Source of the DNA: Escherichia phage vB_EcoA_4HA11
Reading direction: 5' to 3' (one strand)
DNA: 64,000 bases
Sequence record: MN445184
A model generated the notes under the pieces. It had not been told where the DNA came from and did not search any database. It worked only from the letters and a program-made list of their open reading frames with translations. The position numbers were made by a program, and so were the translations under genes. This document shows positions 60,001 to 61,919 of the stretch, piece by piece; the stretch's first letter is position 1; every line of letters starts with the position of its first letter.

Positions 60001-60219
60001 ATGATCAAGAATACCAGAACAATGAAGCGCGCAATCGCTCACTGTGTCCATTCAGTGGCAACTATTATGTTCCGCCACCACATCACATTTGATGAAGCAC
60101 TGGACCCACAGTACCATGAAGAGCGTTGGGATTTGTTGTTAAAGAACGGTGCTAATCCTGAGCATAAAGATCAACTCCTTGGGATGACCAAGGCGCAGCT
60201 CGTCGGTGAATCCAAATGA
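60001..60219 (+). CDS. hypothetical protein
   Basis: 72 aa, ATG. Confidence 0.45.
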   Translation: MIKNTRTMKRAIAHCVHSVATIMFRHHITFDEALDPQYHEERWDLLLKNGANPEHKDQLLGMTKAQLVGESK

Positions 60220-61331
60220 TCTACCTCCTGTTTGGTGTGCCATTGGTACTGGCTATCCTGTTTGTGACCTACCACCGCAAGACCCATGAGCCGAAAGAGA
60301 CTCTGATAGCGACCGCGATTGTAGTGGTGCTATCCTGTCTGATTCAGGCGGGGACTTATGCTGCGTTCTCCCTTGGTAGTTCAGGGGATGTTGAGATCCT
60401 GAACGGGTACGTCACTGCAAAGGAACGGAATAAGGTGAGCTGTGAGCATTCATATGAATGCAACTGCTACTACACCACATCTTGTACAGGTTCAGGAAAT
60501 AACCGATCTTGTACACAAACGCGTCATTGCAGTACATGTTATGAGCATTCATATGACGTGGACTGGGATGTGTTGACGACTGTCGGTAATCTGACGATTG
60601 ATCGCATTGATCGTCGCGGCCTTGGTCAGCCACCGCGCTGGGCGCAGGTTCAGATCGGCGAACCCGCAGCTCGTGAGCACTCCTACATGAACTATGTTCT
60701 GGGCAACAAAGACTCTCTGTTCTCTCGCTCAGACCAACAGTTTGCTGAGCGCTTCAAAGACAAGATTCCGAAGTATCCCGAAGTCTATGACTACTATCGC
60801 GTCACTCGTGTACTGAATGTGTCTGGTCTGGCGTTACCGACCACATACTGGAACGATTATCTGAATGATGCCCTGAAGAAGCTGGGCGCAGCCAAGCAGG
60901 TGAACATCGTCTGGGTTGTGACTTCCGGGCAGCCAGTTGAATACTTCCAGGGCTTGGTCTATGCTTGGGATGGTGGTAAAAAGAACGACGTTATCGTCGT
61001 GACCGACATCAACAAAGACATGAAGATCAATTGGGGTAAGAGCACTTCGTTCGCTGATGGTATGCACAATCGTGAACTTCACTCTCGCAACGGCATGGCT
61101 CTCACAGGCCACGACATGGGCGTCGGTGTCATGGCTGATGTTGTCGCTAACATCACCAAAGGCTACAACCGCGTTGAGATGAAGGAAATGGAGTACCTGA
61201 AGTGGCGGGAACTCAAGACCTGGGAAGTTGTGATTGTTGTTCTGCTGGGCTGTCTGCCGTTCACCGCAATTTTCATAATGCAGCGAATGGAGTACAATGG
61301 TGGCCGTCGACGTTATCCGTTTAATTTTTAA
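60216..61331 (+). CDS. Cys-rich membrane protein with N- and C-terminal TM helices
   Basis: 371 aa; TM at each end; cluster of about 10 Cys between residues 75 and 110; directly upstream of the LemA-like gene. Confidence 0.6.
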   Translation: MIYLLFGVPLVLAILFVTYHRKTHEPKETLIATAIVVVLSCLIQAGTYAAFSLGSSGDVEILNGYVTAKERNKVSCEHSYECNCYYTTSCTGSGNNRSCTQTRHCSTCYEHSYDVDWDVLTTVGNLTIDRIDRRGLGQPPRWAQVQIGEPAAREHSYMNYVLGNKDSLFSRSDQQFAERFKDKIPKYPEVYDYYRVTRVLNVSGLALPTTYWNDYLNDALKKLGAAKQVNIVWVVTSGQPVEYFQGLVYAWDGGKKNDVIVVTDINKDMKINWGKSTSFADGMHNRELHSRNGMALTGHDMGVGVMADVVANITKGYNRVEMKEMEYLKWRELKTWEVVIVVLLGCLPFTAIFIMQRMEYNGGRRRYPFNF

Positions 61332-61349
61332 TCAAAAGAGGAAGTAAGA

Positions 61350-61919
61350 ATGTCTCAATCTAAGGGTATTGCAGCAGGTTGGATCTTTGGTTTGGCTTTG
61401 CTGGGCATTGTGATCATCGGTATCGGTACTGTCATCAGCTACTTCAACGATTTCAACCGCACTGAACAGCAGGTCAAGAAGTTCAACAAAGACTCCGAGA
61501 ACTACCTGAGCAACTATACGCTCAAAGTTCAGGAGACGGCGCAGATTCCTGACATGTACAAAGACGGCCTGAAGGAAGTTATCAAAGGCACGTTCGAAGG
61601 ACGTTATGGCGCTGATGGTTCCAAAGCTGTGATGCAGTGGATCCAGGAACAGAACATTCAGTTTGATTCCAGCCTGTACAAAGAGATCCAGGTTGTCATC
61701 AGCTCAGGCCGCGATGAGTTCCGTATCAGTCAGACCAAGAAGCTCGACATCTGCACAATATACGAAACCAAGCTGGCTCAGTTCCCTGGTTCGTTGATTG
61801 CTGGCATGTTCGGCTACCCGCGCATCGACCTTGACAAGACCTGCCAAGTGGTGAGTGATACCCGTACCCAGGCCGCGTTCGACGCTGGTATTCAGAAACC
61901 GATTAACTTCAAAGGCTGA
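61350..61919 (+). CDS. LemA-family membrane protein
   Basis: N-terminal TM helix and C-terminal FPGSLIAGMFGY matching the LemA signature FPSNIFAGMFGF from memory. Confidence 0.6.
   Translation: MSQSKGIAAGWIFGLALLGIVIIGIGTVISYFNDFNRTEQQVKKFNKDSENYLSNYTLKVQETAQIPDMYKDGLKEVIKGTFEGRYGADGSKAVMQWIQEQNIQFDSSLYKEIQVVISSGRDEFRISQTKKLDICTIYETKLAQFPGSLIAGMFGYPRIDLDKTCQVVSDTRTQAAFDAGIQKPINFKG

Follow-up and report, generated by a model that had tools for sequence, protein, structure and literature searches.

The P371 and P189 genes and their predicted products

We analyzed a 64,000-nucleotide stretch of DNA from Escherichia phage vB_EcoA_4HA11 (sequence record MN445184; one strand, 5' to 3'), referred to here as the window, and concentrated on two adjacent genes at positions 60216–61919. 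These genes encode proteins of 371 and 189 amino acids, designated P371 and P189, and are separated by 18 nucleotides. Both open reading frames (ORFs) are real genes, with matches to PHROG families and homologues in other phages. Their coordinates and their location on the + strand are exactly those given in the first-pass annotation of the window, a reading of the sequence made without database searches, which had proposed that a LemA-like protein is paired here with a cysteine-rich membrane protein. Nucleotide comparison places the phage in the subfamily Aglimvirinae of the Ackermannviridae as a virulent member, in keeping with its earlier description as lytic; the window shares 95% nucleotide identity with Escherichia phage AV101 and with Enterobacter phage fGh-Ecl02, the figure for the Dickeya Limestoneviruses being 91%. 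As described below, the two proteins very probably constitute a LemA-TPM pair.

The architecture of P189 fits that of LemA, with one N-terminal transmembrane (TM) helix, a helical domain of about 150 amino acids, and an FPxxxxAxxFG[FY] motif near the C-terminus. A family profile was built from an alignment of 42 diverse P189 relatives, and its best match among PDB sequences was 2ETD, described as 'lemA protein' (E 7.3e-4, query residues 30–158 against chain residues 10–155). We also gathered true LemA proteins, carrying the Pfam LemA domain (PF04011), from the 2ETD sequence and aligned 26 of them. Comparison of the two families by hhalign gave a probability of 96.5% (E 8.2e-10) over 146 columns, the matched stretch taking in the TM helix at one end and the C-terminal FPG..FG motif at the other (query 15–162 against template 30–194). 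The motif FPGSLIAGMFGY, which had been taken as a LemA signature in the first-pass annotation, is found at residues 145–156 of P189; it aligns with FPxxIxAxxFGF of the true LemA proteins and with FPGVIFAKMFGF of TM0961. When relatives of P189 were scanned individually, LemA was the Pfam family most frequently matched (8 of 42 at E<=0.1, best E 0.0016); a precomputed PF04011 domain was present in none of 98 relatives. The AlphaFold2 (AF2) model of P189 (predicted local distance difference test score, pLDDT, of 83) is all-helical, with helices at residues 9–63, 68–82, 87–100 and 108–143, and the TM helix runs on into the helical bundle. We conclude that P189 represents, as judged by profile comparison, a branch of the LemA superfamily that is carried by phages and has diverged. 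LeoBC was also considered as an identity and was rejected, single-sequence scans with Pfam, NCBIfam and PADLOC giving a sub-threshold 17.6 bits in the TM region; the same scans gave no match for P371.

P371 opens with TM1 and TM2, continues with a Cys/His-rich beta domain and a TPM domain, and closes with TM3 and a basic tail. The first-pass annotation had placed a TM helix at each end of the protein, whereas hydropathy analysis of the family gives three TM segments, two of them N-terminal and one near the C-terminus, for 43 of its 46 members. The AF2 model, made with an input of 46 sequences (pLDDT 89.9; predicted template modelling score 0.79), contains helices at residues 2–20 and 26–54, a beta-rich region at 57–158, an alpha/beta region at about 199–316, and a helix at 335–361. 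By structure comparison of this model, the alpha/beta domain has the TPM fold, and Foldseek matched P371 to LMTP1 with a probability of 0.99. The earlier suggestion to look for TPM or DUF2207 in this protein is thereby answered by fold in favor of TPM. The W251-x-G-G-K-K-N-D258 motif of this domain is near-invariant in the family. TPM_phosphatase (PF04536) was the Pfam family that P371 relatives matched most, in 9 of 46 cases, all of them sub-threshold (best E 1.8e-4); a Pfam domain was absent from all 373 P371 relatives, and the family profile had no match among PDB sequences. According to the model, P371 carries a TPM-fold domain with a family-specific Cys/His beta domain on its N-terminal side.

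The beta domain (AF2 strands at 57–74, 79–91, 98–109, 114–121 and 124–128) contains the dense cysteine cluster that had been remarked upon in the first reading of the sequence. This cluster is real: it consists of C76, C82, C84, C90, C99, C105 and C108, accompanied by H78 and H111, and nearly all of these positions are conserved in the 46 homologues. The core formed by C76, H78, C82, C90, C99, C108 and H111 is present in its entirety in 41 of the 46 members. Within the cluster C84 and C105 covary, with both cysteines found in 33 members, neither in 12, and a single exception, and H78, C108 and H111 vanish jointly in three members. A profile restricted to the beta domain, run against 1.84 billion proteins, retrieved 596 representative clusters at E<=0.001. 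The top 150 matches, evident fragments aside, share the same architecture of about 360 amino acids, with the domain at about residues 53–165, and the beta domain is therefore specific to the P371 type of protein. No convincing fold match for the domain was obtained with Foldseek. The FliF collar (MS-ring), the stems of pore-forming toxins and oligonucleotide/oligosaccharide-binding folds were rejected as weak, non-specific matches; those to the FliF MS-ring collar and the toxin stems concern the region of residues 55–125 (60378–60590), all at a probability below 0.45. The domain is made up of unusually long beta hairpins that begin directly past TM2, and in the model these could form a stalk or an oligomeric ring.

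The distribution of charge around the TM segments was used to assess topology. In the P371 family the mean number of lysine and arginine residues is 2.14 in the TM1–TM2 loop, 0.63 in the 15 amino acids past TM2, and 2.12 in the 15 amino acids past TM3; the loop itself (HRKTHEPKE) is short and basic and is predicted to be cytoplasmic. For P189 the net charge is +1.4 on the N-terminal side of the TM helix and -0.45 on the C-terminal side. P189 also has a covarying pair of cysteines, C135 and C165, of which the latter sits slightly outside the LemA-homologous span (31–162): both are present in 27 of 42 members and neither in 14, the one exception being the most distant member. Because of the charge distribution and the covarying cysteine pairs, C135/C165 in P189 and C84/C105 in P371, the soluble domains of both proteins are assigned to the oxidising periplasm. 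We infer an N-in/C-out topology for P189, with its helical domain periplasmic, and a periplasmic location for the beta and TPM domains of P371 between TM2 and TM3, both proteins being anchored, by this prediction, in the host inner membrane.

Linkage, distribution and conservation of the pair

Starting from P189 relatives, we fetched 80 viral loci, whose contigs are about 100 to 400 kb in size. In all 80, and in the annotated LIMEstone1 and RPN242 reference loci, the gene immediately upstream of the P189 homologue on the same strand encodes a P371 homologue; the gap between the two genes across the viral loci is usually 2–150 nucleotides. Homologues of P371 were found by tblastn in 486 phage records and those of P189 in 497, and the distributions of the two over host genera are almost identical. 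The carriers include Ackermannviridae, T4-like phages of Aeromonas, T5-like phages of Vibrio and Pectobacterium, jumbo phages (the GAP32/CBB, Agricanvirus and K64-1 types), phages of Acinetobacter and Sinorhizobium, and Vibrio phage ICP1, in which both genes are present and adjacent. When same-strand neighbors were clustered, P371 and P189 were the only families common to all loci, and there was no conserved third partner, the best other family outside the Ackermannviridae occurring in 9 of 59 loci.

Some loci at the margins of this distribution call for separate mention. P189-like matches were obtained in 15 records of Prevotella Lak megaphages; they are weak (33–36% identity, E 4e-12 to 5e-9), and Prevotella is outside the ten most frequent host genera for P371. 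At the CBB locus a TelA-like 'tellurite resistance' gene (1–1269) lies three genes upstream of the pair. A CBB neighbor annotated as 'putative metallopeptidase' was considered as a link of the LemA-HtpX type and rejected, Pfam identifying that gene as an Rv2179c-like 3'-5' exoribonuclease.

The P371 family is almost confined to phages. In bacterial assemblies, P371 homologues were found at 28 loci among 185,579 species, mostly on contigs of metagenome-assembled genomes; 21 of the 28 adjoin a LemA-like gene, and three of the other seven stop at a contig edge. A single locus (404–1944), on a metagenome-assembled contig labelled Rickettsia typhi, has the bacterial style of gene order, with the LemA-like gene upstream of the P371-like gene; the Rickettsia typhi label of this contig is probably a binning error. 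The isolate genome of Achromobacter anxifer LMG 26857 carries the pair in a 487-kb contig (locus 3277–9636), with genes for a UvsX-like recombinase and a RecE-like exonuclease nearby. Clear virion genes were not seen around this pair, which may belong to a prophage or to another element.

Identity to three Ackermannviridae clades is 83, 69 and 57% for P371 and 86, 85 and 69% for P189. This degree of conservation is similar to that of the DNA-modification enzyme ADDT and above that of the surrounding small ORFs, and the most distant clade keeps P371 and P189 and loses the small ORFs around them. Across phage lineages, homologues of the pair are 30–45% identical and retain invariant residues.

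Gene neighborhood

Coordinates of the features discussed here are collected in Table 1.

Table 1. Positions of the P371/P189 genes, their domains and flanking elements in the window
Feature	Position	Strand	Basis or remark
T4-type late promoter TATAAATA	59629-59636		
Terminator-like hairpin, strong, 16-pair stem	59858..59893	+	terminator scan; counterpart annotated in LIMEstone1
72-amino-acid ORF upstream of P371	60001..60219	+	phrog_16350; stop overlaps P371 start (ATGA)
P371 gene, 371-amino-acid predicted inner-membrane protein	60216..61331	+	ORF; phrog_2087, E 1.5e-163
P371 predicted N-terminal TM hairpin (about residues 1-20, 26-54)	60216..60377	+	AF2, hydropathy
P371 predicted Cys/His-rich beta domain (about residues 55-165)	60378..60710	+	AF2 strands, conservation, covariation
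P371 predicted TPM-fold domain (about residues 185-320)	60768..61175	+	contains W251-x-G-G-K-K-N-D258
P371 predicted C-terminal TM helix (about residues 335-361), basic tail GGRRRYPFNF and stop codon	61218..61331	+	AF2
P189 gene, 189-amino-acid LemA-like protein	61350..61919	+	ORF; phrog_1383, E 4.5e-86
P189 predicted N-terminal TM helix (about residues 7-30)	61368..61439	+	one TM segment in 42/42 members
P189 LemA-homologous helical domain (about residues 31-162)	61440..61835	+	hhalign; includes FPGSLIAGMFGY
137-amino-acid ORF downstream of P189	61924..62337	+	begins 5 nucleotides past P189; phrog_4236

The pair forms part of a tight run of four genes that follows the hairpin, which constitutes the upstream boundary of the run; P371 and P189 are flanked in it by the 72- and 137-amino-acid ORFs. 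Both flanking ORFs are limited to the Ackermannviridae: the upstream one is missing from the loci of other phages, and the downstream one is not kept beside P371 and P189 elsewhere. In LIMEstone1, the equivalent of the downstream ORF (ORF196) is followed by an annotated terminator. A mechanically listed version of this downstream ORF (61855–62337) has a GTG start at 61855 and overlaps the end of P189. A true start at the ATG of position 61924 is more probable, given that the phrog_4236 match covers residues 24–160 of the longer listed ORF and that ORF196 of LIMEstone1 starts a few nucleotides past ORF195.

On the far side of the hairpin, the late promoter drives a 55-amino-acid ORF (59665–59832), whose product has a TM helix and a coiled coil and which ends at the terminator. 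Positions 59629–59893 thus hold a tiny self-contained unit of promoter, ORF and terminator, which is conserved and annotated likewise in LIMEstone1. Further upstream lie genes for a 5-hydroxymethyldeoxyuridine DNA kinase (56731–57636; PF18747, 499 bits) and an amino-acid:DNA transferase (58393–59628; PF18724, 202 bits). Both genes are of the ViI type and serve the hypermodification of thymidine; they are located just upstream of P371 and P189, and the placement of the phage in the Ackermannviridae agrees with their presence. Downstream of the run, the ORFs at 62401–62751 and 62751–63206 gave strong Pfam matches to DUF7231 and DUF7181, respectively; their identity across the Ackermannviridae is 43–74%, far below the conservation of P371 and P189.

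Possible roles of the pair and relation to known systems

The pair is a phage-adapted LemA-TPM module with a new Cys/His beta domain. Our favored interpretation, in which we place about even confidence as a whole, is that of a self-contained membrane pair of this kind with a role in organizing the envelope, the role being the less certain part. Conserved, autonomous and widely shared among phages with differing virions, the module most plausibly acts on a conserved feature of the host envelope. The ectodomains of P371 and P189 would probably act as a complex; the pair may stabilize or organize an inner-membrane or periplasmic component conserved across Gram-negative hosts, and may keep the envelope intact and energised up to programmed lysis. 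Such a function in envelope maintenance or assembly, the likeliest of those considered although we hold it to be less probable than not, is put forward tentatively because TPM domains are seen as non-enzymatic, chaperone-like organizers and because LemA is co-regulated with membrane-homeostasis genes. A chaperone-like function in building membrane-linked complexes has been proposed for TPM domains, with a phosphatase role considered unlikely (Ravi et al. 2024, PMC11237479); on both points the same view is taken in the Lipocone study (bioRxiv 10.1101/2025.01.14.632903). Membrane-homeostasis genes are induced in an sppA mutant of Flavobacterium, and together with them lemA and a TPM gene (PMC13236525); in pneumococcus lemA adjoins htpX (PMC8546594). 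Our literature searches on phage LemA or TPM yielded no description of a phage pair, and lysis or membrane genes are not mentioned in the Ackermannviridae review.

A number of observations count against this interpretation. The LemA assignment made in the first-pass annotation holds for the family, by profile and hhalign match, and is borderline for the single sequence: P189 scored 13.7 bits against PF04011 (E 0.056, residues 125–158 only), the gathering threshold being 26.2 bits, and that annotation had itself named the lack of a LemA profile hit as a result that would speak against it. In a Foldseek search of the PDB with the P189 model, 2ETD appeared at rank 3 amid generic helical bundles (E 0.43, template modelling scores 0.29/0.35). 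A Pfam scan of P371 gave no TPM (PF04536) match at E<=1, below the gathering threshold, and hhalign of P371 against a shallow alignment of four bacterial TPM sequences gave a weak match with a probability of 12%; this match nonetheless pairs W-x-GGKKND-V-I-V-V with WGIGxK..NNGVLLL of the bacterial TPM partners. Covariation is the basis on which C84–C105 in P371 and C135–C165 in P189 are suggested to form disulfides, and on which H78, C108 and H111 are suggested to form a shared metal site. A promoter search located no convincing promoter between the terminator (59893) and the gene run. The functional part of the interpretation is drawn by analogy, and we know of no established mechanism for the bacterial LemA-TPM pair.

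The first-pass annotation had suggested envelope remodelling or superinfection exclusion. The predicted inner-membrane site and the large periplasmic domains would also suit a pair that, in the manner of Imm and Sp of T4, blocks injection by superinfecting phages and keeps their DNA from passing through the periplasm and inner membrane. The carriers are virulent phages, which would gain from exclusion, and the module is autonomous, without another conserved partner. However, the pair is common to phages with very different tails and injection machinery, at 30–45% identity, is conserved like core enzymes, and has bacterial relatives that are chromosomal pairs of a housekeeping type, whereas known exclusion proteins are lineage-restricted and fast-evolving. 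Its spread over unrelated phage lineages and its core-like conservation thus argue somewhat against lineage-specific exclusion, a role that we regard as unlikely. Control of lysis timing, with the pair serving as holin- and antiholin-like proteins or as a periplasmic sensor for lysis inhibition, is suggested by a superficial parallel with T4. Holin T of T4 combines a TM helix with a periplasmic alpha/beta domain, and antiholin RI a TM or signal-arrest-release segment with a helical periplasmic domain; here, an anchored protein with an alpha/beta ectodomain lies beside an anchored helical one, with likely disulfides. In the Vi01 record the homologue of P371 bears the name 'host lysis protein', but this label comes without evidence, and the T4-type late promoter found about 570 nucleotides upstream is separated from P371 and P189 by the strong terminator. 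P371 has no holin profile match, the 46 family members giving one stray sub-threshold match for each of two Pfam holin families as against nine for TPM, and an endolysin or spanin gene is not found beside the pair in any of the 80 loci. In addition, the pair occurs in T4-like Aeromonas phages, which typically have T4-type lysis genes of their own. A lysis function is on these grounds improbable.

By analogy with the activity claimed for TLP18.3 and BA41, P371 might instead be a periplasmic enzyme, its TPM domain acting as a phosphatase or nucleotidase, its Cys/His site holding a catalytic metal, and the LemA-like protein serving as regulator. The TPM fold, the near-invariant W-x-GGKKND motif and the joint loss of H78, C108 and H111 in three members, suggestive of a metal site, are compatible with this idea, and phosphatase and ATPase/ADPase activities have been reported for some TPM proteins (cited in PMC11237479). 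Recent comparative analyses nevertheless find a phosphatase role of TPM domains unlikely (PMC11237479; bioRxiv 10.1101/2025.01.14.632903). The putative metal site belongs to the beta domain, outside TPM, and no catalytic residues were identified in our analysis of P371; an enzymatic role would seem very unlikely. Least probable by far is that P189 is a structural protein of the virion, even though 'virion structural protein' is the label given to phrog_1383 and recurs in many records, among them the LIMEstone1 RefSeq entry, pVp-1 and CBB. The mass-spectrometry table of the LIMEstone1 virion, with 39 proteins, contains neither ORF194 nor ORF195, so that P371, too, does not appear as the known structural component that the first-pass annotation had allowed for. 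Homologues are not mentioned in the main text of the CBB and Agricanvirus proteome papers, and P189 is a predicted membrane-anchored LemA homologue with a membrane partner. Some homologues are even labelled 'major capsid protein' (DU_PP_V, Serratia phage Yaphecito), indicating annotation drift, and the 'virion structural protein' label of the P189 family looks like a propagated misannotation.

A further proposal, which we consider doubtful, is that the pair is an unrecognized, phage-specific envelope machine rather than a borrowed housekeeping pair. The beta domain, its long hairpins rising from the membrane, and the ectodomains of TPM and LemA would oligomerize to give an assembly in the periplasm. 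Under the control of this assembly would be a step shared by all large virulent phages that infect Gram-negative hosts, for instance the sealing of the inner membrane after DNA injection, a gate on lysis timing, or a block to the entry of competitors. If true, this would offer a first experimental handle on the bacterial LemA-TPM pairs.

The interpretation that we favor, an envelope-organizing LemA-TPM pair adapted to phages, bears on a wider class of proteins. To our knowledge, few bacterial membrane proteins of no known mechanism are as widespread as LemA and the TPM-domain proteins. In a diverged version, the pair recurs in roughly 490 sequenced phages as a core-like module with strict linkage, and in metagenomes the P371-type partner accounts for about 600 clusters of proteins at 50% identity. 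Phages retain only genes that are worthwhile in a short infection, and a phenotype in a tractable phage (ICP1, CBA120 or ViI) could disclose the function of the whole LemA-TPM class. A specialist would not be surprised by the LemA-TPM identity as such; it is the breadth and strictness of conservation in phages that make the function directly testable. The analysis also supplies a domain assignment for phrog_2087, a large phage family without a Pfam domain, and corrects 'virion structural protein', 'major capsid protein' and 'host lysis protein' as misleading labels.

The closest known systems are the LemA-TPM pairs of bacteria, such as that of Thermotoga TM0961 (PDB 2ETD), which have the same two protein types encoded side by side on one strand. 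The earlier statement that bacterial LemA genes adjoin a gene for a membrane partner is confirmed for Thermotoga and Neobacillus, in which a TPM (PF04536) gene lies directly 3' of the LemA gene, with overlapping stop and start codons. Like P189, bacterial LemA has an N-terminal TM helix, a helical domain of about 150 amino acids and a terminal FPG..FG motif. In the bacterial TPM partners, a signal or TM segment precedes the TPM domain, and a TM helix and a Gly/Arg-rich tail come after it; in the YgcG-like partner, as in P371, an extracytoplasmic TPM domain is followed by a TM helix and a basic, Gly-rich tail. The gene order is reversed, TPM preceding LemA in phages and LemA preceding TPM in the bacteria examined. 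P371 furthermore has a two-helix TM hairpin where the bacterial partners have a signal segment, and an additional Cys/His-rich beta domain of about 110 amino acids that the bacterial partners lack. Unlike true bacterial LemA and TPM proteins, P371 and P189 fall below the Pfam thresholds.

More distant comparisons can be made with individual TPM proteins and with envelope proteins of phage T4. TLP18.3/Psb32 functions in photosystem II repair, DUF5130 in the mycobacterial CIII2CIV2 supercomplex, and YdjH of B. subtilis as a partner of PspA. P371 shares 12–16% sequence identity with these proteins and differs from them in its extra beta domain and its obligate LemA-like neighbor. As is predicted for P371 and P189, the phage-encoded T4 proteins T and RI (holin and antiholin), Imm and Sp lie in the inner membrane, have periplasmic domains and act on the envelope. 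The likeness concerns a possible mode of working, and no relationship of sequence, profile or fold to P371 or P189 was detected for them. The T4 proteins are restricted to their lineage, whereas the P371/P189 pair spans many phage lineages.

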